64,000 nucleotides of DNA from Marsupella aquatica (GCA_973895155.1 OZ316891.1:25419899-25483898); one strand, 5' to 3'. Positions 33,083 through 62,749 are shown, counted from the stretch's first letter. The notes: generated by a model not told the origin, from the letters alone. Translations and numbers: made by a program.

Positions 33083-34321
33083 CTTCCAATTTGGATGACG
33101 ACAATGTGATCCAGGCTGCCCAAATGAGTTCCAGATATTATGACACTATCGTACAATGGTGAGAAACTATCTTTCTTCCATTGATGTTTGATGATAGTGG
33201 TTCAGAGCTTTCGATAATCCTATCAAATGAACATTATTATCGTTGTTGAGCGTTGCCCAAAACATTACAGCTTCTACAGTACCGCAAGCGTCTTGTACAA
33301 CTTGGCTAACTTTGTCGTCCTCTTTCAGCAATTTGTACGCCATTATTGTGTGCTGGCCTTCGAGTATCCAAAAATGACTGGTCATAATGTCCTCCTCCTT
33401 TGGCGCCAAATCATAGGGCGCCCCATTATAGTCGGGATCTCTGTCAGCCTCCGACTGAACCCACTTCACAAGGACTAAAAAGCAGCATCACTTTTCGAAC
33501 TTTATAGCCGAATGAGAGAGGAGTGAATTCTTTAGCCTATCTGTGTAATCCTGATTCCACTCTCGGCACTTGATGTGGTCCGGTGCAAGATGACAACGTG
33601 ATGTATCAACAAAAAATGACTTGTTGTTAAATATATTCACAACACTATATTCTTTGAGGAAAGAATCAAACAGAGCCCCGACATTCGCTGAGGTAATTAC
33701 TTTCGGAAGATTCTCCGCCGAGTATACTTCAACCTTGGTCACTAGCGGGGCCTTTCCCAAGCAAAATCCCTGGTTGGAAGGAACTCTCTGGAACTCAAGT
33801 ATGTCAATAATGTATTGACAAATCAAATCTCCCGTTGATCCCTCTGGATCGGAAGGATATCCCACACTAGTAACCTTTTCCAAGGCGTGCCTTGCACCTA
33901 GAAGATCATCGATTCTGGGTTGATTGAAGGTTACATATTGCGTTTGATCCAAACAAATGCTTATTTTGTCCTCCTGCTGGTCATCGTTGACTAGCAGAAC
34001 CAATCCCTTTGTACACTCTTTAACTTTCATGTTCTTCTCAAAGAAACACCCAAGAATTTGTGATCTCTCCAAAACTATAGCTTTATCATTTTTTGCCACC
34101 ACAAGACGGACAGCCCCATTGCAAACGACTATTCCAAAATTGGATATCTCAGTCGATTCAAAGAGATGGATACTCTTTGTCTCCGTTGTTCTCTCTCTGA
34201 TTGACTTTCCTCGATATGCAAGTATGGATGTCTTCGCAGGAGTCATTTTTGTCTTGGATTTCTTACAAGAAGCAGCTATAGACGAGCCTCTTTTCCGCTT
34301 TGAAGTTCCGGTAGGATCCAT
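33083..34321 (-). pseudogene. Element A cargo gene exon 1: ParB/Srx-like domain
   Basis: FFVDTSRCHLAPDHIKCREWNQDYTDRLKNSL ... FWILEGQHTIMA; homologous to 57549-58244; intron 32990-33082. Confidence 0.65.
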
Positions 34322-34396
34322 TCTGAAATAGACAAATATTGAAAGTTAAACGTTTATTATAAAATACTAACACGCGCATGGTCGCGTCGTGCCAAA

Positions 34397-34596: not shown

Positions 34597-34789
34597 ATCA
34601 GCCTATTCATTAAAAGTGTATTATTATTTGATTTATGTACATTTGGGCAATGAAAAGTGTAAATTTGAACATCAAAATAGGTACATTTGGCTTTAAAAGT
34701 GTACATTTGAGTACATTTGGCCTAGAAAGTGTACATTTGAGTGAAAAATGCATACATTTGGCTTAAAAAGTGTACATTTAAGTGTATTT
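34597..34789. repeat. Element B TIR and subterminal GTACATTT repeats
   Basis: 26-bp TIR followed by several AAAGTGTACATTT(G) copies. Confidence 0.9.
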
Positions 34790-37700: not shown

Positions 37701-38139
37701 GCAAGGCCTGTCCCTATGAGGTCGCAATGTCCTAATCGAATTCTTCTTTTTGCTTTTTGATCATCTTCTCTCTATTGCTGTCGTCTTGCTCTTCTTATCC
37801 TTTTCACCCTGGAGGGGAATGCTGCTTCTGTTCTTGCTGTCCTTATCGATTCCTCTCGAATGCCTTATGAATATCTATGTCCAATTTTCTAAAGAGTGCT
37901 CTCTTGTTCGATCTCTCTTCTTCTTCTCTTCCCAAGCGTTTTCAGATTTTAATCGCCATAACCTGTTCTCTTCTCTCCGCTCCGCTGGTGAGACAAAGTG
38001 CTGATAACGTGTTGTGGGATAAATGAGACAAAGAGTTGTTCCATCTGTATTCCTGGTAGAATATGTACATGTGGCTACAGCCTAAGTAGTTAGGGTAGTT
38101 ACATAGGTAGTTATCCCAAAGGTAGACTTAACTCAGGTA
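34790..38139 (-). mobile_element. Non-autonomous LTR retrotransposon copy 2 (inverted relative to copy 1; 5' LTR truncated by ~12 bp)
   Basis: LTRs 34790-34931 and 38010-38139; internal region is a near-identical reverse complement of 7948-11026. Confidence 0.93.
36905..37474 (+). pseudogene. Captured STR/STR2-like ABCG exon 1, copy 2
   Basis: Same as 8483-9052, with a different premature stop (TAA 36989-36991); Walker A GPSGAGKST. Confidence 0.85.
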
Positions 38140-40622: not shown

Positions 40623-40662
40623 ACTGAAAAAAATGGATTAAAACCAAACTCATGCAAATTTT

Positions 40663-41660
40663 GATTCAGACTACTATCCTCCAATTTCGGATTTGGACTA
40701 GGACCATCCGAGTCCGGATGTGGACCGGGACCATCCAAGTCTGGATTAGGACTGCAATCCTCCGAGTCTGGATTTGGACTACGATCCTCCAATTCTGGAT
40801 TTGGCCAGGGACCATCCAAGTCCGGATTTGGACCGGGACCATCCAAGTTTGGATTTGGACTGCAATCCTCCGAGTCTGGATTTGGACTACAATCCTCCGA
40901 TTCTGGATTTGGACTGGGACCATCCAAGTCCGGATTTGGACCGGGACCATCCAAGTCCGGATTTGGATTGCAATCCTTTGAGTCTGGATTTGGACTACGA
41001 TCCTTCGATTCTGGATTTGGACTGGGACCATCCCAGTCCAAGGTTGGACTAGAACCATCCCAATCCAAACTAGGACTCGGACCATCCCAATCCAAACTAG
41101 GACTTGGACCATCCAAGTCCAAACCTGGACTCGGACCATCCCAATCCAAACTTGGACTTGGACCGTCCAAGTCTAAACTTGGACCCGGACCATCCCAATC
41201 CAAAATTGGACTCGAACCATCCCAATCCAAACTAGGACTTAGACCATCCAAGTCCAAACTAGGACTCGGACCATCCCAATCCAAACTTGGACTCGGACCA
41301 TCCTAATCCAAAGTTGGACTCGGACCATCCAAGTTCAAACTTGGACTCGGATGATCCCAATCCAAAGTTGGACTCGGACCATCGTAATCCAAAGTTGGAC
41401 TCAGACCATCCCAATCCAAGGACTTGGACCATCCAAGTTCAAACTTGGCCTCGTATGATCCCAATCCAAAGTTGGACTCAGATGATCCCAATGCAAAGTT
41501 GGACTCGGATGATCCTAATCCAAACTTGGACTAGGGCCAATGAGAATCCAAACTTGGACTCGAATGATCCTAATCCAAACTTGGACTAGGGCCAATGAGA
41601 ATCCAAACTTGGACTCGAATGATCCTAATCCAAACTTGGACTAGGACCATCCTAGACCAA
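40663..41660. repeat. Tandem array of a 27-bp quasi-palindromic unit (~35 copies)
   Basis: Unit TTGGACTCGGACCATCCCAATCCAAAC (TTGGAYTNGGA-CCA-TCCNARTCCAA). Confidence 0.92.
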
Positions 41661-42760: not shown

Positions 42761-42988
42761 TTTTTTATTGCCCTAGATCGGACGCCTGCTAAGACGCCAC
42801 GTGTCTTTCTGCCATGTGTTAGAAAGATGGAAGCAAATCGCGTCCTTGTGATGTCCTACGTGGAAGAAATGGAGGAGTTTGACCTCTCCTCTATGAGCGA
42901 CAGTGTGGAACTGGCACTCAAAGACTCTAGACAATTTCAATCATGAATCCCTAGTAAGTATCCATCACCTATCCTCCCTAAGTCTTAG

Positions 42989-43275
42989 AGGACTGGGACC
43001 ATCCGAGTCCAAAGTTGGACTTGGACCATCCCAATCCAAACTTGGACTCGGACCATCCCAATCCAAAATTGGACTCGGACCATCCAAATCCAAAGTTGGA
43101 CTCGGATGATACCAATCCAAAGTTGGACTCGGACCATCCCAATCCAAAGTTGGACTCGGACCATCCAAATCCAAAGTTGGACTCGGATGATCCAAATCCA
43201 TCTAGGAGATTGAATCCCAATTGTAGGAGCAAGTCTAAAACCATCTCAAGTTGGACTAGGACCATCCTAATCCAA
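42989..43275. repeat. Second array of the 27-bp quasi-palindromic unit (~8-10 copies)
   Basis: Same unit as 40663-41660, immediately upstream of the ATG at 43315. Confidence 0.92.
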
Positions 43276-43314: not shown

Positions 43315-43469
43315 ATGGATGACGTTTATGATGTAGGGAGCAATCTTGTTGTTTTCAAACCCGCGATTGCACCGACCCACTGCCTGGACAAATTCTTACT
43401 AGATGAGAGATCCCCACGCTTTTGATGGGGGCTTGAGTTCTCAAGAACCCCGCTTAATAATGAAGTGCC
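43315..43469 (+). pseudogene. 5' end of the element B cargo gene, split by the Copia
   Basis: MDDVYDVG...NNEVP joins in frame with STTIEPV at 56656+ across TSD GTGCC; contains one in-frame TGA. Confidence 0.6.
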
Positions 43470-44005
43470 TGTTGTAAACAAAGTAGATAATTGTAATCTT
43501 CCACACACTTCCATTATATCAAGGACTTATATAGTCCTAAGAGGTTAACATATTGGGTTAAGGTTAACCTACTCTAGTCTAGGGTTAAAGTAAACTATGG
43601 TTTATGACACTTCCCCTTGGTTAATTGGACGGGGTGTCAAGTAACCACACTTTTAACCCTAGTGTAAAATGGAATCCACTTTTGATGTAGCCTCATTAAA
43701 ACTTGTTGCTTTCTTCTCAAGGAAGAGTACTACCATCATTAGAATTTGTGGTCCATAAAATGTATGTTCTATATGATGAATTATCCTGTTAAATTCTAAG
43801 GTATGTTAAAATTTAGGGTAACTTTAGAGTAAGAGTAGTTCACTATGTCTAAAAGTATAATGTCTTATGCCCGAACGGTTAATTGAATCGAAGTAATGGT
43901 GTAAAGTCGGAGGTATATGTGTATAGCTTAGGTCGGGTATTTGGTAAACAGGGAGGTGTTGGGGGGAAAGGTCGAAACCCAAATCCGAAGTCCTCATTTC
44001 GTTTT

Positions 44006-44300
44006 TCAAGCATCTGCTTGGTGGGGTGCGTCGGCAGTGGGGGAAAGCAGGGTAGAGAGTCGACACATTCTGATGGCGGTAACGTGTTGTCGATGGGGTC
44101 CCGTAGGTAAGGGCTTCGTAAAAAGATCGGCGCAATTGTCTTGTGAACGGATCCACTTCACCTGGATCTGGTTTCCACTCTGTTCGTGCGTAAAAAAGAA
44201 TTTTGGATCAATATGTTTGGTCCGATCTGTCTTCATGTAGCCTGCAACAATTTGGTCGACGCATGCTTTATTGTCTTCGTAAATAATTGTTGGTTTGGTC
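44006..44300 (-). pseudogene. Copia RNase H C-terminus
   Basis: PTIIYEDNKAC...DRTKHIDPKFFFTHE...NCADLFTKPLP. Confidence 0.93.
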
Positions 44301-45313
44301 AATATCGTTTTGCCAGAGGGATGGAATGAGCTGGTGACCTTGAGAACTGGTTGCTTACGGGCGCTGACTTGTGCTCTCTCTCAAGAGCTTGGAATCATCC
44401 ACACCTGGATCGGGTGTGGGCGTTGCTTCCCGAGGGGGAAGGTTTTGATATGCAGGAGACACCGCATGCGAATGAACCCACTCTTGCTCACTCTCAACAT
44501 CTCCATGCTCTGGACGGCTCGGGAGATTTTAGAAGGTTTTAGGGCGGTTTAGGGTGTAGGAGAAGGGAGACGCACTGTGTGTACACAGACACGGGCATGG
44601 TGGGTACGGGGGCAGTTTGCTCGATGGAGAATGTTTCCTCAGATACAAGCGATGGCGAAGGAGAGTCTTAACTGTTACACATTGGTGGATAAATCGGTGA
44701 GTGTTGGGTGGATCCGATTCTGTGCTCGGCTATAACCGAGAGTGGCGGAAAAGTGATGAGTGAAAGGGCCAGGATGGGCTTTGAGGAGACCGGAGCGTAA
44801 GCGGACTGATGGTAGATGGGATTGGGAGGATCAATTTTCCGTATGTGGCTGTGCTGGCTGGTTGATGTGACCAAGAATGGTCTCTTCCAGAGGGGAGGAG
44901 CTGCGGGGACTTGATGGGAGGTAATCGCTTACGGAGGTGTGAGGGAATGCCTTTTAGCTGAAGAGGATCGAAGGAGCACGGGACAGTGGGACGTCCTCGA
45001 CAATCGTGGCTTATTCATTGATGGCGTGGAGACTTTTTGATGCCACTCTCCGTTTCTCATAACCTGGGATGGAGCGGTGAGACAATTCTGTATGAAGGTT
45101 TGGCAGCGAGAGGAGAGAGAATAGGGACGAGCTGAGAGCTGTTTCAACGTCGTAACCTGCGAATAGAAGGATGGGCGGGCATACACAGCGGTGAGAAGAA
45201 GGACTGACCTTGGTGCGCCTTGGAGACGAGGAGGTGTGGAGTGGCAGCGGGACTTCGAGCCATCATTGAATCTTCTGGTGAGTACAAGAAGACCTTGACT
45301 ATTTTATTCCTAA

Positions 45314-47287
45314 TTGGATGCAAAGGCTGTAGAGTCAAGGAAGGCCACTTGTATCATGGAGGAACAGGGGATAGACTATTATGGACCCTCGAGCCGCAGG
45401 AGCGCGAGGGGGGGACGCTTAGCTGGTGGACGAGTAGATCGGAGGACACAAGGGGAGCCTGCTGCAAGGCTTGAGGTGGGGGGGATACCCGGTGAAGCTG
45501 TGGGGCGATCACCTGCGCGGGGTGTTATGGTCAATGGACCTGCTATTGGATTCTCTGCGCAAGATGCGCGCTCTGGGAGGAACGACCCGAATTTGGGGGA
45601 GACAACTGCGGCCAGATCTCAGTTGTATTACTTGAATGGGAATGAGCGTCCGGTGAATGGACCTGGACCTAAGGTGCAGTCGGTGAGTGGAATGGAATTG
45701 CCTCAGAACCTGCAGGAGGGGGATGGAGCAGGGGAGAAGGAAGGCGAAGCTCTGCACTGGGGGCGTGGAACAATTGGAAGAGGGGCGAATGAGGTTAACC
45801 AGGATGCAATGGTGGGGAGTGAGGTGCCACAAGAAAATGTGGAGATGCAGGACGCGCCCGTGGAGGATGACGAATCTGAAGAGTGTATCAAGATCCTGCG
45901 CGAGATTGCGATCAGGTCCAAAGGTGATCTTGACAAGAGACTCTTTGCAGAAGTGGAATGGAACCTACCGGAAGCAGCTCGTAATGTGAGACAACTATAT
46001 AATTGCGCTCTCATATGCTACTTCACGGGAAGAACGCCGCTCCTCAATGATTTTAGAGCATGGGTAGACGAAGTGATGACAAACCAGGAGGGATGGCCGG
46101 TACTTCAGGTTAAATTCGTAGGGAAGAACTTTTACATGATAGTGTTTGAGGATCCTAATCACAGGGATCTGGCACTCAACTACGCACCATGGTTTATGGA
46201 GAGACGATTTATATACACGTTCCCATGGGATCCATCCTTTGATGTTAAATGTGAGAACTTCACGAAGCTCCCAGTGTGGATTGAGATACCGTTTAGGGAT
46301 CTTGCTCTAGAGGGCTGCAGAAGAAAGATTGCGTGCTCTCTAGGGACTCTGCTGTACTACATTCAGGGAAACGAATTCAGTTCGTATCCCCATGATCGGG
46401 CTTGCATCCTTTGGGACACGGACAGGGAAGTCCCTGCCAGTGTGAAGATTCGAATTCGTGATGACATTATTATCTGGCAACCGGTGACGTTTAAAAATAT
46501 CCCCTATCATTGCTTTCGATGCAACCAAAGAGGTCACCTGGCCCGTGAATGTAAAGTAATCTTGGAGACTGCCGGTGCTCTACGGATGGGAGCGGACCCG
46601 CCGGACGAGAAAGATGACGAGAGACACTCTGAGGCTGATCAGGAGGAGGTGTTGAGGGCTAAAGAAAATGCTGAAGCACGTGCTATTTTTCGGGGAGCCA
46701 TGGTGCCTCCTGTGCTGGAGGTACCCTTTTCAGTGGAGGAGGATATCGCTCAGGTGGAGTTGCTAATTGTTAGTCCGGTTCCTGGGGAGTTGGCAGGGCG
46801 GGACTCGGGGCCGCTGCTGCGGGAGAACCCGGATTTGCGGGTGGCGGCTTTCTCTTCGGGAACCAGGGAGAGAAGTGCTGATTGTCTCCTGACGCCTGGG
46901 CGGGCTGGCTGCATGGAGGACTCACAAGACACAGAGGCTGCCAGGATTCCACTACTGGCTGTCGTTGTCCCGTCAATTGGGCGACGGACTACTCAGAGAA
47001 ATTCAGTGGAACAAGGAATTGAAGCCCTTACTACTCCCAATTCGCGTGATGGAAATGATGAGACCTTCTCCTTTCACGAAGAATCTGATGCGGAGATGTC
47101 TGAATATGAAGCTTATATTTCACACAGCAAATTCAAAGCTAGAGCCCGCAAGCAAGAACTTCGCACACCGCCCTCTGAAAGGACTGAGAAGGCCAAAGGT
47201 GAGGCTAAGAAGCAAAGATCAATTAGATTCTCACGTGGTGCCATGTCTGATGCAGGAAGTGCGGACGGGATTACAATGCACAAGTGA
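45314..47287 (+). CDS. LINE ORF1 (DUF4283-like + zinc knuckle)
   Basis: GKNFYMIVF...APWF...PWDPSF...PVWIEIP...CFRCNQRGHLAREC. Confidence 0.9.
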   Translation: MDAKAVESRKATCIMEEQGIDYYGPSSRRSARGGRLAGGRVDRRTQGEPAARLEVGGIPGEAVGRSPARGVMVNGPAIGFSAQDARSGRNDPNLGETTAARSQLYYLNGNERPVNGPGPKVQSVSGMELPQNLQEGDGAGEKEGEALHWGRGTIGRGANEVNQDAMVGSEVPQENVEMQDAPVEDDESEECIKILREIAIRSKGDLDKRLFAEVEWNLPEAARNVRQLYNCALICYFTGRTPLLNDFRAWVDEVMTNQEGWPVLQVKFVGKNFYMIVFEDPNHRDLALNYAPWFMERRFIYTFPWDPSFDVKCENFTKLPVWIEIPFRDLALEGCRRKIACSLGTLLYYIQGNEFSSYPHDRACILWDTDREVPASVKIRIRDDIIIWQPVTFKNIPYHCFRCNQRGHLARECKVILETAGALRMGADPPDEKDDERHSEADQEEVLRAKENAEARAIFRGAMVPPVLEVPFSVEEDIAQVELLIVSPVPGELAGRDSGPLLRENPDLRVAAFSSGTRERSADCLLTPGRAGCMEDSQDTEAARIPLLAVVVPSIGRRTTQRNSVEQGIEALTTPNSRDGNDETFSFHEESDAEMSEYEAYISHSKFKARARKQELRTPPSERTEKAKGEAKKQRSIRFSRGAMSDAGSADGITMHK

Positions 47288-47533
47288 CTGCTGCTCACCA
47301 TTCCTAGAGGGAGCGATTGTGATGCGAGGGTCCAGGGGAATGCTCCTTTTGGCGGTGGAGTGGCGCATATAGCATCCCCCATGCGTGTCTCTCCTGCTGG
47401 CTCTATTAATGGATATTTGAGTGGACCTATGGGTCGAGATGTGACGGGGATGTCTCCCGGGGGACGGAATAGACTATGAGACGCAAGGATGGGGGGTGGC
47501 TGTGCCAGGATATAATTTTGGCATAGTAGGAGG

Positions 47534-50500
47534 ATGGACGGAAGGCTCAGGGTGGCATCCTGGAACGTTTGTGGACTTTGTGAGCCTAATCGTAAGCATA
47601 TTGTTAAGAATTGGGTAAGATCGCTGAAGGTACCGCTGGGGATTCTGGCCCTTCAAGAAGTGAAAGCTGATCAATTTAGACTTGATATGGCTCTGCGGGC
47701 TATTCTCCCATCATATCAGCACTTTTCTTCTGAGCCGGAGGAGGGAAAGGGAGGAACGGCACTACTGGTACCTGAGCTGAGGGTGGTGGGCTCGGGAACA
47801 CTGGATATGGGAAGGGCGGTATGGGCTGTGATCGAGAAGGGAGCGGTGACCTTCGGAGTTGCGTGTATATATGCTCCCAATTCAGCTAGACTAAGAGCTC
47901 TGCTATGGAATGATCTAAAGGTGATGCTACCACACAATGACTGGGTGCTGTGTGGTGACTTCAATATGACGGAACGCAGAACGGACTCGACTGGTACATC
48001 GCCGCTGATCCGCGGTAGAGAGGCTGAGTTTTGGAGATTCTTGAAGATGAGATTTAATTTGACAGACGCGTGGGACATTAGGGGAGGAGCTGCTGGCCCG
48101 CGCTTCACGTGGAGAAGGAATCGGAATGGAGAGATGTCACAGTCTCGACTCGACAGGATTTATGTTAGTGAAAGGGGAGAATGGCTTCGTGAGGTGGAAC
48201 TCCTGCATGACGGGGGCTCAGCCCTTTCGGATCATGATCCTGTTATGTTGAATGTGCAGCTCTCTGGACTGACAGAGACGGTGGAGAGAGGCAAAGTGCG
48301 TCTCTTCATGGCCAACCCGGCGTTTCTGCGGAGAAGGGAGGACATTCTGCGGCTGGAGGCTGCTTGGAGGGTGGGACGAGGAGATTTTGTGGACCCGCGG
48401 CTGCGCTTTGCTAAGGGCAGCTGGAAAATGCGTCAAACATTGAAGGAAATTCAAGCCCAACCAAGGACAACTGAGATGGAGATGGCAGCTCAGCGAGCTC
48501 AGTTGCGAGTTCTTAAGATGGCCATTATAGAACACCATTCAGAGGGAGACATTGCAGAGTTCATGGACGCGGAAGACACTCTACATGCTTCAAAGTTGGA
48601 GGAAGCACATAGAGGACGACGGCTAGCCAGAATTAAGTGGTTAAGTGAAGGAGACGAGTCAACAAAGTTTTTCTTTGCTACAGTGAGGGCTAAGCGATCT
48701 CGTGAGTCCATGCCTTCCCTGAATAGGGAGGACGGGAGTATAGTAGCTGACCCTGGAGAAATCTTGAAGGAGGTAGAAAGGTTCTGCCAAACATTATACT
48801 CGCCTGATCCGCGATTGGAAGCGGAGTTGGAAGAGGTTCGTGTGGCCAGAGACAGACTGCTTGGCAACACAAGGTTTGCACTCTCTGGAGCGGAGAATTT
48901 GAGGATGGAGAGACTCCCGTCATACCAGGAGGTGAAGGAGGTGCTGTGGCTCCTGCCTTGTGACAAAACGCCGGGACCGGATGGCATGACAGCTGAGGTC
49001 TACAGAGCATGCTGGGAGTTTCTCGGGCAAGATCTGGTGGATATGATACAGGAGTTCTGGCTTACGGGGGCTTTGGACGTTGGAATCTGTGAAGGAATTG
49101 TGAAGTTCATACCCAAGAAACCTGATAAACGGTTTTTAAGGGACTGGCGCCCTTTGACAATGTTAAATACTATATACAAGCTCATTGCCAAGATCCTCGC
49201 TATACGACTCAAACCGATTCTACACATGATTATTAGCCCGCAACAGACTGGATTTATACCTGGAAGACACATTCTTGAAAATATTTCCTTAGCCTGGCTT
49301 ACATGTGACTGGGTGCACAACAAGAGGAGAGAGGCATTGTTCCTAAAACTGGATTTTGAGAAGGCCTTTGACCGTGTTTCACATGACTACTTATGGGAAT
49401 GCATGCACCTACTGGGCATCAGCGGACGCTTCACTATGCTGGTCAGGGCCCTGCTAGCACAGGCATCTTCCAGGGCCTTGGTGAACGGATTACTATCAAA
49501 CACATTTGAGCTTAAACGAGGGGTAAGACAGGGCTGTCCACTGTCACCATTGTTGTTTGTAATCTCCACGCAACCTCTTATGGACTTTCTCGATACTGAG
49601 ATGGCGGAGGGCCGACTTTGTGGACTGCAGATCACCCCTGGATTCACTATCTGCTATAGACTGTTTGCGGATGATGTTGGGATGTTTATCCCGGCCACAG
49701 AGCGTGCCTTTGAGGAAGCAACCACTGCTCTAGAATGCTATGAGATGGCTAGTGGGGCGCGACTGAATCTGAAGAAATCCGTTGTGATCCCATTGGCATT
49801 GGAAAGGATCCCAGAGTGGCTGAACAACACAGGCTGCCTTATCAGCCTTTTGGGGGGAGTTTGAGCACGGAACAACTGCACAAATTCTGTTTGGATAAGA
49901 TTTGTGCCAGACTTTCTGTTTGGTCCAACAAACTTCTTTCTTTTACTGGCCGTTCACTACTGGTCAAACAGGTACTACTTGCTATCCCGATCTACCATGT
50001 AATGTATTGCAAGGCATCTGTAGGCCTGGCGAAGAAAATGATTGCTCTGAGCAGGGAATTTTTATGGGGATATAATGCCACTGGAGGACGGAAGGTCCCC
50101 CTGGTGGCCTGGGATCGGATGGCTTTGCCACGTGTGGAAGGGGGGCTGGGATTCCGGGACTTCCGCAGTCACTCTGATGCATTACTTTCTCAATGGTTCA
50201 CTAAGGCACTTAACGCGCCTGAGACGAAATGGTCTAGGATGTTGGCAGCCAACCTGAAATTGATGGGGTGGACGAACTACAAAATTATTAGGCGAAATGG
50301 ATACTCCTTCCAGGACCGGCTGCTACTGTGCACGCCTCGTTCATTTAGTGGGCTCCCCTACACGACAGGTCTCTGGAGAAGCTGGGAGCTAGTGAGAGCC
50401 CACTTATTCTTCGATCCTGGGCGGACGGGGCCACCTTCCCGGTGGAGCATCATGGATACCCTCAGGTGTATGGTGGGCTTCAATTCCCTTCCGAATAAAG

Positions 50501-51417
50501 CCCTCATAGAGATTGCTGCAATTTGTGGCAGGCTGGGATTGAGGTCTATTGGTGATGGATGGTCGACGGAGGATGGATGTTGGAAGGACCTACCGCTACG
50601 ATGGCACAATATGCGTGGCTTTTCTGATGAGCATCGAACGATGGCTCGTTCGTTCTTGGAGTGCCTTTGGCGGGCAGACAATTGCCGATCTGAATACTAC
50701 TTGTATGCCAAGCAGTGGAGATGGACAGACAGACCGGAGCCGCTGAAGGACTTCAGAATCGAGAATTGTAGAGTGTATGATTTCTTAAGGCCTAAGACTG
50801 CATCCCATGACCGCCTCAATCGGATCTGGTCACTGTCCTGGCCTGAGATGCGCTGGAATATGTGTTGGGCTAAGCTTTGGGGGTCTGATCTTCCGATTAG
50901 AGGCAAGACCTTTGTGTGGAGGATTATTGTAGGGGGCCTTTTCACTGGGGCACGTGCGCTCAGAATGGAGGTGAGTAATGGAGATTGCAAGCTTTGCAAA
51001 GGATGGCTGGAGACGATCCCCCACGTGTTCTTCCACTGTACACATGCGGTCCGTTGCTGGCTACTCTGGCAGGATTCGTTGCAGATTCTGGGCTTGCCAA
51101 TGGGACGAGGTCTGATGGCTCTTTTAGAGGCGGCCTGCGGGAAGGAGCCTGTGCAAGTGGCCCGGATCTTCGTCTTGCACCATATTCTGTGGCGACTCTG
51201 GACGGGAAGGAACACTCACATGTTTCAGGTGGGGGGGAGACGGGTGTTTGACTTGGGACTTGTTCTGAAGGAGGCAGCGGAGAACGCTTTTGCTGTTAGT
51301 CGGCGCTGCCCCCCGGGCAGGAAGTGCACCCGCCTGATTCGGGCAAAGGCATGGATGGATGACCTGCGTAGGGTTTGGCTAGGCAGTGGCAGCATTGCTG
51401 TCAATTCTTTTGCTTGA
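47534..51417 (+). pseudogene. LINE ORF2 (APE endonuclease-RT-zinc finger), frameshift/deletion near 49850
   Basis: SWNVCGL, LQEVK, GDFN, SRLDR, SDH; KTPGPDG, WRPL, KLDFEKAFD, GVRQGCPLSP, LFADD; CKLC...ETIPHVFFHC. Confidence 0.93.
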
Positions 51418-51694
51418 GGGGGACCGTGGCTTCCTGGATGATCTGACTGTTGAATGCCCTCTTATGTTGGGCTTGGGCTTGTGTTGGTGATTGATTTTCC
51501 CTTTTCCACTGTTTGGTGGTCGGGGGGCTGTGGGATATGCGCTGGTGATGTGTGCCTGTGCGCTGTGTGTTCGGCTTTGTTTTATGTCCCTTGGTCTGGC
51601 CTTCTGGTCTGTCTGTTTGCCCTCCCCGTGGGGCTTTTCGCGGGGGAACCAAAAATTATAAAAATGTTCCCATTCCAAGGAATATCGTTTTGCC

Positions 51695-54600
51695 TGTTTG
51701 TTTCAGGATATAGTTGATAATACTGCGGAGCCATATTGCCTCACGACATGCTTCATAGAGAGAGATGACTTCTGCGTGATTCGAGGAGGTTGTGGTCATG
51801 CTCTGTTTCGTACTCCTCCAGGATATGGCAGTTCTCCCTTGTAGGAAAACGTAGCCAGTCTGTGACTTCGAGTCCTGTGGGTCAAAGAGGTACCCCGCAT
51901 CTGCATAACCGATGAGTTCATCTGGGTTGTCGTTTGGGAAGAAAAGGCCCATATCTATTGAGCCTTGAAGGTAGCGGAATACCCTTTTCACACCGTTCCA
52001 ATGCCGAATAGTTGGATGTGCAGTGTGTCGTGCCAGTAAGCTTACTGCGAAGGAGATATCCGGTCTTGTATTGTTTGCCAGGTAGAGAAGGGCGCCAATG
52101 GCTGATAGATATGGCTTATCCGAGTCAAGGGCTGGTTCATTCTCCTGTCGTCGCCTAAACATGTCCTTAGCTGTGTCCAATGACCGCATCTCCATGGGTG
52201 TGGACACAGGATATGCATTGTGCATATTAAATTGTCGAATGATCTTCTTGGTATAGGTTGATTGACTAATAAATGTGCCAGTTTGCAGGTATTCAAATTG
52301 TAGTCCTAAGCAGTATGTCGGCTCTCCAATTTCTTTCATCTCGAAAATACTCTTCATTGTATTAATAGTTTTGTGTAAGAGTTGTGGAGTACCAAATAAG
52401 TTGACATCATCGACGTACAGGGCGAGGATGACGAATTCTGTATCGATGTGTTTGATGAATATGCACGGTGCGATATCGTTGTTGATAAATCCAAGGGTTT
52501 GCATCTCAGTTTTAAACTTCTGGTACCAGATGCGTCCACTTTGTTTTAACCCGTTGATGGATTTCAGGACTTGCACAACAAACGCCTGCTGTCCAGTCCC
52601 ACTTTTTCTGGGGTGCTGGAGTGGATCTTTATTTGTGTTGCCACTGCTCAACACTAGGCCTTTGAGCTTCTCATCTGGTACAATCTGTCGTATTCCCGAC
52701 TTCATGTCCTTACTCAAGTTCTGGAAATGTTTCCCTTGGACATGTTCTGTCACTCTTGCGAGTAGTTCTTTTGGGGCTTTCATGAAAATTTTGGAGTCTA
52801 GTACTCCATATAGGTACGCTGTTACAACGTCCATTAGTATATTACAGAGTTGGTGTTTTCAAGAGAAAGCTATAAGATACCTGAATGTAGTCACATCCAT
52901 AACAGGTGAATAGGTCAAATCATAATCCCTTCCCGGGATTTGAGTGTAGCCTTTCGCTACTAAGCGTGCGCGGTATCTAATGACATCTCCTTTGGCATTT
53001 CTCTTTCTGACAAATGTGAATCTGCTGTCTGTGTAATCATTGTTAGGTTGGACTTGTTTTAACGGGCCAAAGACATGCCTATGGATCAATGCATCCATTT
53101 CAGTGTTAATGGCCTCTTGCCACTGTGGCCAATCCGACCTCGCTTGTGCTTCTTTAATGGTTAGGGGGTCCGGAGTGTCAGTTGATATTTGCTGAGCTAT
53201 GTGATAGGCAAATTGTGCATCAACGACAGTGTTGGGTCTTTTATAGATTTGTCCGGTGTATTGGTATGGGATGGCCATTTCTTCATTATCTGGTACGTTA
53301 GATCTATCTGGTTCATTAGTAATAGCATGCATCATGGTTTCAGGTAGTACCTGATGAGGGAGTCTCTGGCGTGGTCGGGAGTCTCTAGATTCTGGTGGCC
53401 TACCTCTTTTTTTCTTTGCCGTGGTCTCCATTGCTGATTTTGTGGCAGGTTGTACTCGAGCTGGTACGTTTGCTGCCTCTACATGGGATCTTGTAACGTT
53501 GGCTGCATCATTAAAGGCGTCGGGGATCTTGTCCAACATTTCTTGGAGGTGTAGTAGTCTGCGGACTTCCTCATCCGCTCGCTTCGTTCGCGGGTCCTGG
53601 TTGAGTAATTTTCGACTGTTCCAATTTATGCTTTGTGGAGGTGTATCCCTCGTCAGTGGTTTTTCTGTAAGTAACTGGGGGAATGAATCTTCATAGAAGT
53701 GACAGTCTGCGTATCTGGCTTTAAATAGGTCTGCAGTGGTCGGTTCCAGGTAACGGATTATGGATGAGGAGTCGTAGCCAACGTAGATGCCTTCCTGTCT
53801 TTGAGGTCCTATTTTAGTGCGCTTTGGCCCAAGGATGGGGACCATCACTTTGCATCCAAAGACGCGCAGATGTGACAGATCAGGGGGTAATCCGAACGCT
53901 AAGTGGTGTGGAGTTTTGGTATTAAACGCTGAGGGCCTGTACTTCAGCAATGTGGTGGCGTGGAGGACTACATGTCCCCATGCGGAGAGGGGTAACTTGG
54001 AGTTCAGTAGGAGTGGTCGAGTAATCATTTGGATACGCTTTATAACAGATTCGGCAATTCCGTTTTGAAAATGGACGTAGGGAACTGAGTATTCTGTGTC
54101 AATTCCCGCCATCCAGCAGAAATCATCGAATGCTTTGGAGGTAAATTCCCCTGCTCCATCCACTCTCAGTTTCCGGATTGGATTTTCTGGGAATTGTGCT
54201 TTAAGTTTTAATATATTGGCTAAGATTCGTGCAAAGACTAAGTTTCGACTAGAAAGGAGGGATACTTGTAACCATTTAGTCGATGAGTCAATTATGGCCA
54301 GGAAGTACTTAAACGGTCCAATGGGTGGGTGTATTGGCCCACATACATCTGCGTTCAGGTGTTCCAAAAAATTTGGGATAGCATGGATCGTCTTCGGTAT
54401 TGGTGGTCTTGTAATCAGCTTCCCTTGAGAATAGGCTAAGCATTGTTGTTTCATTGTGGATGGGTTGACTCCTTGTGGGATTCCTCTGGAGTCCTTGATA
54501 ATTCTCCGGTACATATTTACTCCTGGGTGTCCCAGTTGGTAGTGCCATAGGTGTGTTATTTCTGATGATTCAGTTGTAGAATAATTTACAGTAATTTGAG

Positions 54601-55996
54601 TCGCATAGAGACCGGGGGGTATGAGTGGTAATGTCTCTTTAATATTGGTTCCATCATTGGTAATCTCCAAAATTTGTAGTGTGTCCTCTTCATCTGTCTT
54701 TGCCGTTCGCAGTTGGTATTTATTAGCGACTACGTCCCGAAAGCTTATCAAATTTCGAGTAGCTCGTGGGGCAAAGATTGCTGCATCAATATCAATAACT
54801 GTTCCTTGTGGGAATGTCACTGTTGCGGCTCCCTTACCTTCTTCTATCTGGTTTATACCCAAAATTGTGGTCATTGATCGTGTAGATGGGGTGATACTGT
54901 GGAAGTACTTCTTGTCTTTAAGAATTGTATGTGATGTTCCGCTGTCAATTATCCCAAGGTTGGGGTCATCTAATGAGGTGTGTATTGATGCTGGTGTTAC
55001 CATATGGGTCTCCTGTTCTTCAGGTTGTTGTGTAGGTGTTTCTTCCGGGTCCTGATAGTTAGCTAAGTCTTCCTCCATCTCCATATAGTTGCCTTCTGGA
55101 TTTTGCTTTAATTGGGCCCTTGCTTCTGTATGTCGTTTAGCTGCTTGGTCTGATGCCCATCAGTTCTTCTTTATGTGTCCTATTTTACCACACCGGTAAC
55201 ACAGCCTATCTTCTCTGATGTTATCAGGTGGTATGTTTCGTCTGCTGTCTTGGCCGCTTGCTCCTCGACCCCGTGAGTTGTATGAAAAACGGTTTCCTCG
55301 GCCTCTGGGATTTTGATTCCTGCTTCTGTCTTGATATCCGCCTCTGCCTCTTGATCTGCCTCGTCCCCTTTGGTTTCTCATATTATAATTTGTTTCTGGT
55401 TTTTGTGGTGGTGGGGCTGATCCTGCAGGTCGTTTTCTAGCGTTCTGCAGGGCAACGGTCTGCTGCTTCTCTTCTACCAGTAAATGTGCAATGAGGTCTG
55501 AGTAGACTGTAAATCTCATATTTCTGTACTGTGTACCGAGGGCTATATTTGCTTCTGGGAATGTGCTTAGTGTTTTGTCGATCATATCTGCATCAGGGAC
55601 CGGATGGCCACACAACTCCAATTGGGATGTGATTCTAAATAATGCGTTGTTGTAGCTGGCTATTGATGTGTAGTCCATCACTCGCAGGTTATACCAATCA
55701 CGGCGGGCTTCTGGGAGCCAGACTTCGCGCATATGGTCGAATCTTGATTTTAATTTATCCCATAGTAGGCGTGGGTTGACCTCGTTCATATATTGGGTTT
55801 TGAGTGGAGGAGCCAAATGCTGGCGTAATAAGAAAACGGCCTTAGCCTTTTGTTGTAGTGTCAGATTATTATCATTTATCAAAGTATCTTCGAGTTCCAG
55901 TGATGCAAAATATGTTTCTGCATCTACTGACCACGTTAGGTAGTTGTTGCCGTCTACTGAAAGGGCCTGAAAATGCAATTTCTCCAATGTTGCCAT
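51695..55996 (-). pseudogene. Copia gag-pol (gag, PR, INT, RT, RNase H start) with in-frame stops
   Basis: DGNNYLTW, CYRCGKIGH, IIDSGTSHTIL, WHYQLGHPG, DVCGPI, VDGAGEF, RARLVAKGYTQ, LYVDD, GYADAGY. Confidence 0.93.
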
Positions 55997-57342
55997 ATTT
56001 CTTGCACTTGTACTCGGGATTGTAATGCTCGGTGTGGTGGTGTATATATATAATACTTGGGTCTATCCAATTGGTAAATATATGCTTCGGGGAGTTATAG
56101 GTGCTGGTTCGAAGCACCTATAAGTCCAATTTCGGGATTTCACCGTAGCATTGTTGTTTCTAATTTGGCATAATGGCCATTCCCAAATCCTGCATTGGAT
56201 TCCTTGATGAAATAAGTTGGATGGAACAAAAAAATTAGACAAATCCGTCCTTACGGCAATGAAGATTGAGATCGCTAATGGATGCCTTCCTCATAGCAAT
56301 CTGATGTCTGGGCTCAATTTTTGCGTAAACTAGCATCACTTTTTAGGTGGGATTGTACTCAATTTTGGGGTAGTTAGGCGGTTACATAGGATTCCGGTGC
56401 CAAAAATGCAACATTCTTGGTAATTTTCTATGTAAAAACTATGATCTCTCAATATGTCTGTTGGGGCAGCCTAGGCAAAAAAAATCATTGAGCCAGTCGT
56501 GCTAATAACGTGTTGTAAACAAAGTAGATAATTGTAATCTTCCACACACTTCCATTATATCAAGGACTTATATAGTCCTAAGAGGTTAACATATTGGGTT
56601 AAGGTTAACCTACTCTAGTCTAGGGTTAAAGTAAACTATGGTTTATGACAGTGCCATCAACCACGATTGAACCTGTTTTGACCTTAAAGTGCAGAGGAAA
56701 TAATAGCCTGACTTTTGTTTGCGGACCTGTGGTCTCTGTTGGCATTGGAGGGAGAGGGATGAATACGGTCATTCTTGAGATGCACGATAAGTCCTGTTGG
56801 GTTAAAGTTAACCTTCTGTCAAAGGCATACTCCTCTGAATTCAATGTCGAATGGCACGCAAGTGGGTAATTGAGCATTTTGTCAATGGGATTTTTTCCAA
56901 AGACCTATGACACAAAGAAGTTGGTCGTCGGGGTAACTGGTATGCTTCCAGTCGACATTATGTATGGGTTTCAATATTTGAAACTCAACATGATGAAGCA
57001 CCAAGGCAATTTTTCTTTTGCAACGACCTGGACGTTAAGCAATTTACTTGAGAAAGCTGGATTATTATCGTCGGAGTCGGAGGAGCCTGGTGTTTTAATT
57101 GATAAGGATGTTGCATTTGCTCCCAAGTTTGATTTAGTCAAAGCAAAGCAATGGATAGAATCTTTGTCCAAGACGAGAAAGCTTCTAGCGGTGAATACAA
57201 ACCCTGTGCCCGAGAAAGCGCCAGAGAAAGCTCCAGAACCTACAACAGAGACCGCGGGAACTACAACAGCAACCTCTCAAAGAGCAGTGGGAAAACGAAA
57301 ACAAAGCCAAAGGAAACCTCCGGTTGAGAAGAAACTTCCGGT

Positions 57343-57500
57343 TGAGAAGCCGAGTACGAGAAGCCGAGTACGAGAAGCCGAGTACGAGAAGCCGAGTACG
57401 AGAAGCCGAGTACGAGAAGCCGAGTTGAGAAGCCGAGTATGAGAAGCCGAGTTGAGAAGCCAGTTGAGAAGCAACGTCTGGTTGAGAAGCCGAGTGCAAG
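57343..57500 (+). repeat. 14-bp tandem repeat GAGAAGCCGAGTAC within the exon
   Basis: About five perfect and several degenerate copies. Confidence 0.9.
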
Positions 57501-58282
57501 TGAAAGAGACCAAGACAGAAGAAGAAACAGAAAATTGACAGTGCCATCATGGATGATACTACAGAAAACCTGACAGTGCATTCACAAGATGTGGACGAGC
57601 AGTTGAACGCTCCTGAGGAGAAGAAGGTCTTAGAAGGTAATGAGGTATTGCAACAAATGGAGCAATATTATACGTTTGGGATCAATTCGATATTTTCTAT
57701 TCCTATAGACAGTATTTTCCCTGCGTCGGCAAGACTCTGTTATAGAATGTTGAATGCAGAACATGTAAAGGAGGTGGCCAATTCCATGATAAGAAATGCG
57801 GGGCATGAACCACACATAGCAGACTTGATTCCTTACACTACAAAACATAGAAACCTAATGCAGTATGACAGCACAGAATCAGATAGGAGGGACTTTGTAG
57901 CAGCCGTGAAAAAGGGCGAGGTTCAATTCCTTGCCATTAGCGGTCAACATTCGGCTAGAGCAGCCAGATGGATTCGAGAATGGGCAAACAAGGATGCCAA
58001 GCTGACAACATTGGCAAAAAAGCTGGAATTTTGAAAGTCAAGAATATTATCTCATCGAACACCATCATCAATATTAGTTGAGCATTCAATGCGATCTAAT
58101 GCGATCAATAGCACGATGGTGTTTGAGTCATGCTTCAAAGATACAGTCGTTCATGCTAGGCGACAATTTGTGGAATGTGGAAAACCTAGCCGGCCAAAAC
58201 ATGGGGACAACAAAACAAACGCTCAAGACAATCAAAAATTTCAGGTACGAAGTGTTACTGCTTGATGGGTACAATACCGTAG

Positions 58283-58676
58283 ATTCATGCACATTCAGTA
58301 GAATATTTCCACTGATATCTCCTAGTTTTGCGTTGGTCTGGGATGGTCCCAGTCCAAATGGATTCATGCACATTCAGTAAAATCTTTGTCCACTGATATC
58401 GTCTAGTTTTGTGTTGGACTGGGATGGTCCTAGTCCAAATGGATTCATGCACATTCAGTAGAATATTTCCACTGATATCGCCTAGTTTTGCGTTGGACTG
58501 GGATGGTCCCAGTCCAAATGGATTCATACACATTCAATAGATTATTTTTCCACTGATACTGTCTAGTTTTGTTCTGGACTGGGATGGTCCCAGTCCAAAC
58601 TAAATCATGCACTTTCAATAGAATATTTCCACTGATACTGTCTAGTTCTGTGTTGGACTGGGATGGTCTCAGTCCG
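58283..58676. repeat. Intronic ~80-bp tandem repeat x5, each unit containing the element-B palindrome
   Basis: ATTCATGCACATTCAGTAGAATATTTCCACTGAT...TTGGACTGGGA-TGG-TCCCAGTCCAA. Confidence 0.92.
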
Positions 58677-61242
58677 CACCTGAGTGCTATCAAACAATTG
58701 AGTTATGGAGAACTAACAGACTGTCCTTTTCAATTGTAGGATTGGTTGGCTCTTGCAAGAATGACCATGGGAAGGAAAGATTGTCGAAATGTTTACTGGT
58801 TACTGTTTGTGGACGATGCTCTTTTTGAGTTATGGAGTTTGGTATGCCAGTTGTGGTTGGATGGGAAACTTCCCGATGGAGCTGGGGTAGAAGGAAATGA
58901 GAAGTGTGAAAAAGCAGTTACTGTTGCCATGTTTCGTTGTTTTGATGGTGAGTTGATCTCACAACGAGACATCACAAGAATACTGACGCGGGTGAAGTCA
59001 GGAAAGGCATTGCTAAAGAAAGATGCCTCTAATAAATCAGACATGCCATCTATAGAGGAGTTGGCCAAAGATGTGAAGATCGTGCGGAAACTGAAGTCCC
59101 TTATTGAAGACTACTATTGCACCAAGGATGCGGTGAATTTCCCGGCAAATACTAATTGGGGGAAAGTAGTGGAGGTTCTTCCTACGCTAGCAATTGACTC
59201 AGAGTTCAGCAGGTGTCAAAGAGCCGCTGGCGAGGTCTATCTTGCTAACCTTTTAAAACCAAATCATACGCGGGAGAGCGCAATCTTGCCGACGGCATTG
59301 GCATTCCGCCTAGATGATATATACTGCCAGAAATTTGACCCTACCATGGGCTACATTTTTTAGCGACAATCTCATGAAGACCATTGATCCAGAGTCATTG
59401 CAAGAAGCTCCTCCGACCTGCCCTCTTGCCATTGTTGATTTTAGCCGGCTTCCGCAAAAACAATGGACTAAAGCAGAGATTCTTGTTCTCTTTGAATACA
59501 TTGTGGAGCTTCCACAAAATCCCACGATTGTTGTGACGATAACAGTTCATCCTGGACAACTTGCATTGAATGTCCATGGTGCCCTTCGTAAACTGGGACA
59601 AGAGAAAGCTTTGACCATTCACATTGAGTATGGGAGTTATTCTCAAGATGATCAACCGCACCCTCATGACTCATGTTGGGGTGGGGGGATTGAAGAAGTT
59701 ATCTTTGCGGGGATTTCTCGAGATGAAGACGTCAATTGAAATGAAGTTTTCAAGCCCAACTATCCAAAGCCAAAATTCTTGTATACTGCAAAGGATGTTG
59801 ATTACGAAGTATGCAAGATCGACAAGGGAAAGGGGAAGGCGAAGGAATCAGATGAGGGGACACAAAACAACAACCTAAAAGTGGTTTTGGACCCGGAAGA
59901 GGCCGTCAAGATTATGAATATGGCCCCTCGATTTGAGACAGTTGGCAGTCGCGGAGGGTGGGTTAATCCTCATGCCAAACCCACGCGGATGATCTGAAGG
60001 ATTATTGAATCCTTGTCAGAACCAGGAGATTTGGTTCTAGATTTTTTCTCCGATGGCCAAGTCATGAAGACATCATTTTTTTGCGATAGGGAATGCTTTG
60101 TTTATTGTGACTCTCACTCCGAGAGGCATTTTGTGGAAGCTTTTGCTTCCTACCTTTGCGAGAGAGTTCCCTCACTTAAAGCTCATTGTGAATCACTTGC
60201 TGAAAATTCTTGACAATGGGCTACCACTGTTGCGGCTGTAGCTATCGCTGTTGAATCCGATGGTTTTGAGTCTGAAGATGTTGCTGACAAAGTGGATGAA
60301 GGCGTAGAGGCATCAAAGGAGGCATATGTCAAGAATTTGGATGACCGTGTTGGTCAAGGTGAGCCTTATGATGTAGATGATGATATTGGACTTGTACCGA
60401 ACCGTTCATCTGGTTTAGATGACATCCCTCCGGGGCCCAATGAAGTTCAAGTTGATGATAACTTGGACAAGGATGATCCCAATCCATCAACGCCGGGAGG
60501 ACAGATGGAGCAACTGGAAGGAGCAAGGGTTGATACGTTTGATCATCTTTCTTCAACCAATCTGATCAATGAAGGCGCAACGAGGCTTGGAGATTCAAAT
60601 GAAGCTGAAACTAAAGAATTGACTCGGGGGGAGACCGAGGGGGAGACTGGCGGATTGCCTGACATTCCAATCAATCCAGGAGGAAATGCATCAACGGCTG
60701 CTGACAACCAGGCAGGTGCTTCAACTTGTCCTGACACACTTTTCAGCTTCTGATGACAAATTGGTGTTCGTTTGTTCACACTCGGGGAGTCCTATTGTCC
60801 TTTCGCTCTCAAAAAAAAGGAAATAGAGTTGGATCAACTGGATGGAGGTCATTGGAATGCGACGCACGATGTTACGTGTGGAAAAGTGGGCCAAATCGAG
60901 GCCAAGAAATATCATTGGATGTTGCTCCTTCAATTCTCAATAAGGAGGAGTATAAGAGTGGAGAATTGGGGTTGATAACTCCTGTTTGGACTTCACCTTA
61001 TTGGGTAGAACAAAGTACTTCAAATGTCAATTTTGAAATCCAACAGGAGCTTGGTGCTGACATGATTATTGATGAATACGGATCTCTTATTTTGGAATGA
61101 AATTCAGCCTTTGACTTTGTATTTATTCATATCAATCTAAAATACTTCTCGGTCTCACAGAATGCGCTCACCAATTAAAGTCTCCATATCCGTCTACACA
61201 TTGTGAGGCTTCTAAAAATGGTATGTAGGTTAATTTTCTTTT

Positions 61243-62377
61243 TTGTCAGCCATTGTCTTGTATTTTTGGACTGAGACAATCCTAATCCAAAGTTCACTTT
61301 TGGTCTTTTCTCTAAGAATGGTGTTTGGTGCACTTGCAGAATCGAGACCTGGTCCCCTCAAGCGGAAGTTGCTGATTTTGGACCTTAATAAAATACTTTG
61401 GGATTCTATTGAATTCCAAAGCAAGGGCACATCCAGGAATATTGTCACCTCAAGTGGAGTGCATTGGGATAGATCAAATGGAACTAGTCGCATGTATACA
61501 GAGAGGCCAGGGCTCCATGAGTTTCTAAAGTTGGTTTTTGACCGGTTTGACGTTGCAATTTGGACATGTGCTGGGATGCCGCGAACAGTGAAAATGTTGA
61601 ACATGACGTTCACAATTGAGGAGCGGTTTGAAACTGAAGTTTGTATTCACACAGGTGGAAACCTTTGACACAGGCATTCAAAGGCGTGACATTACAAATG
61701 GAAAGGCAAATGTGCTATTGAAGGATTTTCGGGTGGTATGGAGTGCATTTGGAAATCTATATGATGAAACCAACACACTCCTTGTGGATGACTCCCCCTT
61801 GAAGGCATTTGCCAACCCAGACATGACCGGACTATTTCCAGTGCCCTACACGCATGCCAATCGTGGAGACAATTTTCTTCTAACAATTCTTTGGCCATGT
61901 CTTGAGAAACTGTCACATGCAAGTGACATTCGTTGTTATCTTCTCCTAAACTCTCCAAAGTGGTCTCTATTGCACATTAAGAGAGACAAGGCAAAAAATG
62001 AGATTACTTATAATCAACTTAGTAAGAGATGTGCAGCAAAAATTTGGAACTCACAGTATAGGCATAGTGTGCTGGACCTCAATAGCAATGAGATTCCTTG
62101 GGCTGTGAAGCACCGTATATGTAGCTTACGTCCTGAGGTGGAACTTGACGATGCACTAGTCACCTCACTTGCTAGATCATTTGTAGGACGGGAATATTCA
62201 GGTCTGTATAGAGAAAATCCTAGACATTTTTGGTGGGAGATTATAGCAGTTAGGAACAACACCACCAAATTTCATCTCCCTGAAGATAAAGGGAGTTGCA
62301 ACCGTGACATTAGGGTAGATAGTAAAGGAGACAAAGGCACATGCTCAAATAAATATTGTAAGGAACACTTTGTTTAG
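61243..62377 (+). pseudogene. Element B FCP1/NIF phosphatase-like gene (frameshift ~61620)
   Basis: RKLLILDLNKIL...ERPGLHEFLK...FDVAIWT...LLKDF...TNTLLVDDSPLKAFANP...LFP. Confidence 0.88.
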
Positions 62378-62619
62378 AGATCTGACTCATGTTAAGCCCA
62401 TTAGATAGTAAAAATGGGTGCCAGCCCTGGATATTCATTGTAAGTTTGGACACAATTGTATATAATTATTTTCACACATTATCAATCAATGGTCCTTGCC
62501 TGGGCTTCTTTGTGCGGAAATGTTTTTACAAGTATGATCTCTATCCCATGGTTCTTTGTGAACTAATAAGTAATATAATACTATTATAATTAATATAATA
62601 CTAATAAGATTTGGCCTAT

Positions 62620-62749
62620 AAAGTGTACATTTAGGTATCAAAAAGTGTACATTTGGGCTTCATAAAGTGTACATTTGGGGACATAAAAGTGTACATTTCA
62701 GGACTGATTTGTGAACAAAAGAAAATACACTTTTAATGAATAGGCTGAT
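62620..62749. repeat. Element B opposite TIR and subterminal repeats
   Basis: AAAGTGTACATTT x4, then AATACACTTTTAATGAATAGGCTGAT. Confidence 0.9.

Follow-up and report, generated by a model that had tools for sequence, protein, structure and literature searches.

Beta-class amino-methyltransferases of Pfam family PF01555, such as CcrM, M.RsrI, M1.MboII and M.PvuII, resemble the domain described here in their predicted fold, in the permuted order that places motif IV before motifs X-I, and in the sequence of motifs X-I. According to the accessible part of one report, the tested enzymes of this class are active only as multimers, among whose subunits SAM binding and DNA recognition are divided (PMC10406627). 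The family treated here differs from PF01555 enzymes by lacking the PPY of motif IV and the motif II acid, by a shortened motif I, by its fusion to ParB-like, helical and C-terminal domains, and by being encoded in an intron-bearing gene of a plant transposon. A bacterial-type beta-class domain is likewise present in two eukaryotic cases, N4CMT of bdelloid rotifers and MpDN4MT1a/b of Marchantia, the latter also from a liverwort. To our knowledge, the active DN4MT1 enzymes are the only bacterial-type amino-methyltransferase domains known from land plants. In the accessible descriptions, N4CMT and DN4MT1 serve their hosts as active enzymes and carry SPPY or TSPPY motifs, neither of which occurs in our family; N4CMT has a chromodomain, and DN4MT1 is described there as lacking extra domains (PMC8885841). 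In fold score, N4CMT (Z 14.2) is no closer to the family than the bacterial enzymes are.

A transposon-borne amino-methyltransferase domain is also described for the DIRS1 retrotransposon, where it is judged inactive in all copies (PMC4738411, accessible text). That domain belongs to group 2 (PCIF1-like) and is part of a retrotransposon polyprotein, whereas the family domain is beta-class and has a gene to itself within a DNA transposon with terminal inverted repeats (TIRs). The same text links ParB-type domains to amino-methyltransferases in ParB-terminase loci of phages and prophages, and it mentions eukaryotic derivatives of these phage genes in haptophytes, chlorophytes and chytrids, with few such enzymes in land plants (PMC4738411). 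As far as these accounts extend, the inactive DIRS1 domain and the eukaryotic clades derived from phage ParB-methyltransferase loci are the nearest precedents.

Two transposon systems invite comparison as well. The VANC proteins of VANDAL transposons bind tandemly repeated motifs in the non-coding DNA of the element that encodes them (PMC10398659, accessible part), and both traits, a DNA-transposon accessory gene and an element-specific motif in non-coding tandem repeats, are seen here as well. VANDAL elements belong to another transposon superfamily and no sequence relationship to VANC was seen; anti-silencing has been shown for VANC and is proposed for our family. Sola elements have TIRs and 4-bp target site duplications (TSDs), as found here (CCTG/CCTG and ATAC/ATAC), can exceed 15 kb and occur in the moss Physcomitrella; the accessible part of their description mentions no such cargo (PMC10741241), and the catalytic half of the transposase is missing from our copy. 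Sola is given without a Pfam match in the accessible part of PMC5751038.

The window, i.e., the whole 64,000-nucleotide stretch of Marsupella aquatica DNA analyzed here, contains two genes of interest: gene B, carried by a TIR transposon, and gene A, its distant paralogue (Table 1). With a probability of about 0.5, we read gene B as a defunct cargo gene of a multi-copy TIR transposon, and the intact protein of its family would be an accessory factor of the element that lacks catalytic activity and binds DNA in a sequence-specific manner.

Table 1. Coordinates of the features discussed in the text (positions of the window).
Feature	Position	Strand	Remarks
Non-autonomous element, 343 bp	5700..6042	.	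related TIRs and 22-bp repeats; TSD ATAC/ATAC
Gene A, distant paralogue outside gene B's element	31650..34345	-	LEGQH motif, helical part, methyltransferase-like part with YFDPSS; broken
Transposon left end, 26-bp TIR and 22-bp subterminal repeats	34597..34787	+	TSD CCTG 34593-34596
Nested LTR-like insert, ABC-transporter fragment	34788..38139	.	outside the system; second copy 7806-11172
Putative transposase	38140..40637	-	DUF7869 E 0.0016, under cut-off; C-terminal part missing; 293-bp insert 38929-39222
27-bp tandem array upstream of transposase ORF	40669..41660	.	26 palindrome sites
27-bp tandem array upstream of gene B	42988..43275	.	9 palindrome sites
Gene B 5' coding end, inferred	43315..43469	+	separated by Copia insertion; frame carries on past the insertion
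Nested Copia	43470..56650	-	identical 140-bp LTRs, TSD GTGCC; splits gene B near its start; outside the system
LINE inside nested Copia	about 44301-51680		bypassed by contigs of two runs (44300->51681)
Gene B N-terminal region	56656..57503	+	14-bp repeat expansion 57344-57472; frameshift near 57502
ParB/Srx-like domain	57504..58245	+	ISGQHS motif at about 57936; TGA 58032; weak, low-confidence model
Gene B intron, GT..AG	58246..58739	+	repeats of about 80 bp with 5 sites of the 25-bp near-palindrome
Conserved, probably helical domain before the methyltransferase-like domain	58740..59363	+	41-43% identity to P0002, P0003; frameshift at end
Beta-class amino-methyltransferase-like domain, pseudo-enzyme type	59374..60210	+	broken in window copy by TGA 59737 and 59995; then TGA 60211
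Motif IV position, D-F-S-R replacing (D/S/N)PP(Y/F)	59437..59448	+	from hhalign to prokaryotic DPPF/Y and family column counts
Motifs X-I, NPHAKP ... LDFFSDGQ	59965..60060	+	family form LDFFSGG[QV]; prokaryotic FFAGSGTT one residue longer
Acidic linker and conserved C-terminal domain (about 95 aa)	60214..61100	+	palindrome site 60463; frameshift near 60738
NIF/FCP1-like HAD phosphatase gene	61219..62377	+	PF03031 E 3.6e-7 and 1.4e-6; frameshifted; DLNKIL at catalytic motif
Transposon right end, 22-bp subterminal repeats and 26-bp TIR	62598..62749	-	TSD CCTG 62750-62753

The transposon and the layout of gene B

The transposon carrying gene B spans positions 34597-62749 and amounts to 11,615 bp once the two nested inserts are removed. 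Its 26-bp TIRs are perfect, and the empty site without the transposon restores an interrupted 184-codon ORF with weak F-box similarity. A TSD of 8 bp as in hAT elements was rejected because it contains one mismatch here and does not fit at the 343-bp element, whereas 4 bp are exact at both. We also rejected a CACTA element as the carrier of gene B because the CACTA fragments lie outside the TIRs. Sequence matching the region was found in six public runs with three organism labels, and thousands of divergent contigs with 85-99% identity mapped to two stretches of the region examined. Many divergent copies of the transposon exist, and some are free of the lesions of the window copy: at the stop codon at 59737, all contigs listed from four runs differ at position 59739. 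The summed contig depth on the transposon was several-fold to more than 100-fold above that on the nested LINE and Copia elements, such depth not being a copy number. The element fits a multi-copy, Sola-like TIR DNA transposon, and its transposase is presumably Sola-like by its protein motifs. No prokaryotic relative of the transposase was found in our search. The element context was read for the window copy among the family genes.

Several minor features of the element and its surroundings were recorded. A long N-terminal part (39225-40637) belongs to the transposase ORF itself and seemingly contains repeated beta-rich domains without any Pfam match above cut-off, which we take to resemble CACTA Tnp1-type proteins. 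The 293-bp insert in this ORF, which other contigs skip, is probably a MITE: it comes with a duplication of roughly 10 bp, and its summed depth is very high. The two 3.35-kb LTR-like copies are 98% identical and lie in opposite orientations. With its Copia, Gypsy, LINE and CACTA pieces and GT-AG introns, the region looks like part of a repeat-rich plant genome.

Gene B codes for a ParB/Srx-like domain, a helical domain, the methyltransferase-like domain, an acidic linker and a small C-terminal domain, in the same order as in the long family members P0158 (1009 aa) and P0160 (1219 aa), the latter of which has an additional basic N-terminus. Because its frame in the window is interrupted by TGA stops at 59737, 59995 and 60211 and by a frameshift near 59345-59362 relative to the preceding coding stretch, gene B cannot make the protein there, and the window copy is dead, a point that the first-pass annotation had left out. 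The N-terminal domain is likely ParB/Srx-like, as judged from a poor model of its exon (pLDDT 48.8, built from 5 sequences). With this low-confidence model, the first 22 rows listed by Foldseek were ParB/Srx folds (best E 0.024, none at or below 0.001), the VIA search against 48,161 chains placed ParB/Srx-type proteins on ranks 1 to 8, and the best Z was obtained with KorB (Z 5.0, rmsd 5.6, 77 aligned). A ParBc_2 match (E 0.038) was recorded in one of five sequences of the domain. The arginine of the GxxR motif, which we take to be the nucleotide-binding arginine of ParB/Srx proteins, is absent from the ParB-like domains, where the site reads SGQHS, SGAHS or EGQHT.

Behind gene B, the transposon carries an NIF/FCP1-like gene. 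This association recurs, with NIF occurring in the same gene model as the family domain in 3 of the 33 relatives scanned (two of them named Riccia) and NIF ORFs lying downstream of gene A. HAD phosphatases are characterized by a DxD motif. Its second Asp is missing from the NIF/FCP1-like gene of the transposon, from the NIF ORFs near gene A (DVEHLL and others, 12165-14575) and from P0126 (DVEGLL). The ParB-like, methyltransferase-like and HAD-like cargo domains all look disarmed.

Fold, motifs and relatives of the methyltransferase-like domain

The beta-class motifs quoted in the first-pass annotation are indeed present. NPHAKP (59965-59982) and RIIESLSEPGDLVLDFFSDG (59998-60057) lie in one plus-strand frame, IVDFSR (59431-59448) precedes them in the same frame, and YFDPSS of gene A is read on the minus strand (32156->32139). 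The point in the quoted string 'I.RIIES' is the TGA stop at 59995, and LVLDFFSDG ends at 60057. The FFSDG of the window copy represents a lesion or a variant, as the family reads FFSGG at this place (Gly in 22 of the 24 full domains). With its stops read as X, the window domain matched PF01555 at E 1.5e-5 and 25.5 bits, just below the cut-off of 26.7 bits, over residues 199-226 only, which comprise motifs X-I. Among the 33 relatives scanned, 20 matched PF01555 at E <=0.05 and 3 reached the cut-off.

The domain was modeled with a pLDDT of 86.9 and a pTM of 0.86 (75 sequences). Foldseek placed beta-class amino-methyltransferases on all of ranks 1 to 10, with CcrM (E 3e-7), M1.HpyAVI, MboIIA, TTHA0409, RsrI and PvuII among the top matches, followed by N4CMT and METTL14 chains. 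VIA-align gave Z 16.9 for CcrM (rmsd 3.2, 203 aligned), 14.9 for RsrI and 14.2 for N4CMT. At the sequence level, the family profile matched M.RsrI with an E-value of 1.6e-9, and profile-profile alignment by hhalign with five prokaryotic enzymes set the Asp of DFSR onto the Asp of DPP[FY] with 97% probability. The profile match and the whole-domain fold match rule out a chance motif. A non-Rossmann fold or missing profile similarity had been named beforehand as arguments against amino-methyltransferase homology, and neither was encountered: the predicted structure is of Rossmann type with the beta-class permutation, and profile and fold agree. We are therefore confident that the model represents a complete beta-class amino-methyltransferase fold. 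A special link to N4CMT or DN4MT1 was not supported, as bacterial N6-adenine enzymes score equally or higher in fold.

Word searches returned four relatives (P0002-P0005) with long open frames and 38-48% identity to the window domain, and a profile search of 1.84 billion representatives yielded 198 matches at E <=0.001, the best 150 of which were considered. Among 24 representatives, 13 are named, namely 11 from Riccia sorocarpa, whose loci are spread over six chromosome-size contigs in agreement with a transposon as carrier, one from Ceratopteris richardii and one from the liverwort Calypogeia fissa, the nearest named relative of the window domain, which makes a liverwort host likely. Long open frames are found in P0002, P0003, P0158 and P0160. 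The family thus occurs in liverworts and at least one fern. The viral contigs searched contained no relative. All 14 loci from a metagenome scan belong to ordinary enzymes of prokaryotes, with the match lying in motifs X-I; DPP[YF] is present in 11 of them, the other three are truncated, and five served as outgroup. In the resulting tree, the family was set apart from the five prokaryotic outgroup rows, and a donor cannot be named from such a tree. No description of the family was met in the literature searched, which consisted mainly of freely accessible papers. The family apparently represents a second, undescribed lineage of bacterial-type amino-methyltransferase domains in land plants.

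The active site is altered throughout this lineage. PP[YFW] at motif IV was found in 0 of 46 rows (the window copy and two near-duplicates included), and the search for members keeping (D/S)PPY came out negative, as (D/N/S)PP(Y/F/W) occurs nowhere in the 165 stored family proteins. The motif IV Asp is kept in 42 of the 46 rows, followed by FSR (13), FGR (6), LTH (4) and many other combinations, so that positions 2-4 vary freely. Among the full domains, 19 positions are conserved to at least 80% at a median identity of 23%, which speaks for constraint, and the best conserved parts are the motif IV Asp (22 of 24), the motif X Lys (23 of 24) and the D-F-F-S-G-G of motif I, which is one residue short of the prokaryotic FFAGSGTT. 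The position after motif I is never Thr (0/24) but Q, V, I or another residue, and the ribose-binding acid of motif II is likewise missing (0/24), with S, A, V, T, C or G at the aligned position and a D/E one position further in 12 of 24. The fern-type members P0128 and P0090 lack even DFFS. In N4CMT, Asp301, Ser283, Thr285, Pro109 and Tyr110 bind cofactor or base, with Tyr110 modeled as stacking the target base (PMC10406627, accessible part), and changing SPPY to APPA abolishes activity (PMC8885841, accessible part); these residues were mapped onto the family by motif position, which is an inferential step.

Because intact relatives from Calypogeia, Riccia and Ceratopteris also lack PPY, the loss is ancestral, and we rejected pseudogene decay as its cause. 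The earlier description of an 'eroded' catalytic motif is accordingly wrong if decay is meant by it, since intact ORFs with a median identity of 23% have D-x-x-x in common. Similarly, the SAM-binding motif is recognizable but not canonical, considering its short motif I and the missing Thr and acid. Judged by its sequence, the family is likely a pseudo-enzyme whose intact protein is catalytically inactive, and it is also borne by a transposon; the first-pass annotation had offered these as alternatives, which do not exclude each other. As the motif IV Asp and motif X Lys are kept, some residual chemistry may persist. The family also cautions against taking PF01555 matches from seed-free plants for 4mC/6mA writers.

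The 25-bp near-palindrome and the proposed function of the intact protein

The reference 25-mer at 41017-41041 consists of 11-bp arms and a 3-bp spacer and is self-complementary at 22 of 25 positions. With up to 5 mismatches, it occurs at 42 sites, all within the about 11.3 kb of the transposon's own DNA, compared to 0 sites in the other 52.7 kb of the window (nested inserts and outside) and 0 in 50 shuffles; a second search gave 30 sites versus 0 in 100 shuffles. Besides the two upstream arrays with 26 and 9 sites, gene B has 5 sites in its intron and 1 in the exon of the linker, and a single site (61266) lies in what is probably the first intron of the NIF/FCP1-like gene. Because of the tandem arrays, the 42 sites are not independent and represent five separate places. 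The near-palindrome is absent from the transposon ends and the 343-bp element, and the ends carry a different 22-bp repeat. The location of the palindromes before and inside genes suggests expression control rather than cutting.

Because the beta-class enzymes tested act as multimers, the simplest expectation for a disarmed form is a dimer that binds DNA, with a palindrome as the target to be expected. We propose that the gene derives from a prokaryotic ParB-methyltransferase gene such as those of phage packaging loci, and that it would have lost methyl transfer and kept the scaffold for dimerizing and reading DNA. The methyltransferase-fold dimer would bind the palindromes before the transposase gene, before its own gene and in introns, and the bound dimer may keep the transposon expressed against host methylation in the manner of VANC, with the FCP1-like partner perhaps linking it to RNA polymerase II. 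A more elaborate version for liverwort and fern DNA transposons, in which a methyltransferase-fold dimer reads the arrays of element-specific palindromes, the ParB-like domain loads or spreads from them as on parS and the FCP1-like partner engages RNA polymerase II, constituting an anti-silencing system of bacterial origin and independent of VANC, seems rather doubtful to us in its entirety. If palindrome binding is true, the family would represent a new sequence-specific accessory or anti-silencing system, and a test would be ready, with the protein, a candidate site and a transformable liverwort at hand. The reader of the palindromes could instead be the transposase or a host factor. A model of one protein and one motif also predicts an array at gene A; its surroundings in the window showed no repeated motif of this sort, which counts against the VANC parallel.

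The same pseudo-enzyme may alternatively act in transposition itself, i.e., in end pairing or target choice, and leave the palindromes to be recognized by either the transposase or some host factor. Second proteins of CACTA or Harbinger elements have a role in transposition, gene B adjoins the transposase within the TIRs, and the missing array at gene A would be in line with such a role, as would the transposase's own long N-terminal part. This alternative is nevertheless unlikely, because the ends bear another repeat, the palindrome is missing from them and from the 343-bp copy, and the sites lie where expression control would predict them. We consider it quite improbable that the protein has a rewired but functional active site and methylates element DNA (4mC/6mA) or another substrate. 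The complete fold and motif order, the 3 of 33 relatives reaching the PF01555 cut-off and the strong conservation of D-F-F-S-G-G, of the Asp in motif IV and of the Lys in motif X would suit such an enzyme, but they are outweighed by the missing PPY and ribose-binding acid, the unconstrained motif IV positions 2-4, the members without DFFS and the inactivity of the APPA mutant of N4CMT.

Marginally less probable is a captured passenger, i.e., a host or foreign gene copied along without service to the element. Gene A and gene B are both broken in the window, as such a gene might well be, and the elements of the window do carry other fragments, e.g., the ABC-transporter piece; yet the family comprises subfamilies that have diverged strongly while keeping their frames intact, both in liverworts and in a fern, the element's palindrome lies inside the intron of gene B, and other copies are free of lesions of the window copy (e.g., the stop at 59737, among contigs listed from four runs), all of which speaks against a passenger. 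The least probable alternative, in which the protein reads methylated DNA or acts like METTL14 as the scaffold of an active enzyme, for instance DN4MT1, could cite METTL14 as a pseudo-methyltransferase scaffold elsewhere (PMC4738411, accessible text), its chains in the fold search behind the beta-class enzymes, and 4mC in liverwort sperm (bioRxiv 2021.02.12.428880, accessible part), but the family lacks the aromatic residue that stacks the target base, the transposon as preserved does not encode an active partner, the family also occurs in a fern, and nothing in the analysis points to methyl-DNA reading in particular.

Gene A and its surroundings

Gene A was not detected from gene B by tblastn, and the fragment of its methyltransferase part alone reached only E 0.055 in hhalign. 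Its helical and methyltransferase parts together aligned collinearly with the family at 91.8% and E 7e-7, with a score of 56.5 versus at most 21.3 in 30 shuffles, and the FD of gene A fell on the motif IV Asp. Located 3' of gene A, past a Gypsy-type insertion, are an Ulp1 protease gene (PF02902, E 3e-16) and several NIF ORFs. The gene A stretch, which lies beside CACTA fragments, may represent a second, larger cargo element. Like the transposon of gene B, gene A is covered by many divergent contigs. With the inserts removed, F-box-like ORFs, gene A, an acidic ORF, Ulp1 and the NIF ORFs are co-directional on the minus strand (11392-17130, 30643-34592 and 62754-63628). The Gypsy-type element (17133-30643) has long direct repeats of 334 and 1035 bp that are 100% identical, which indicates a recent insertion.
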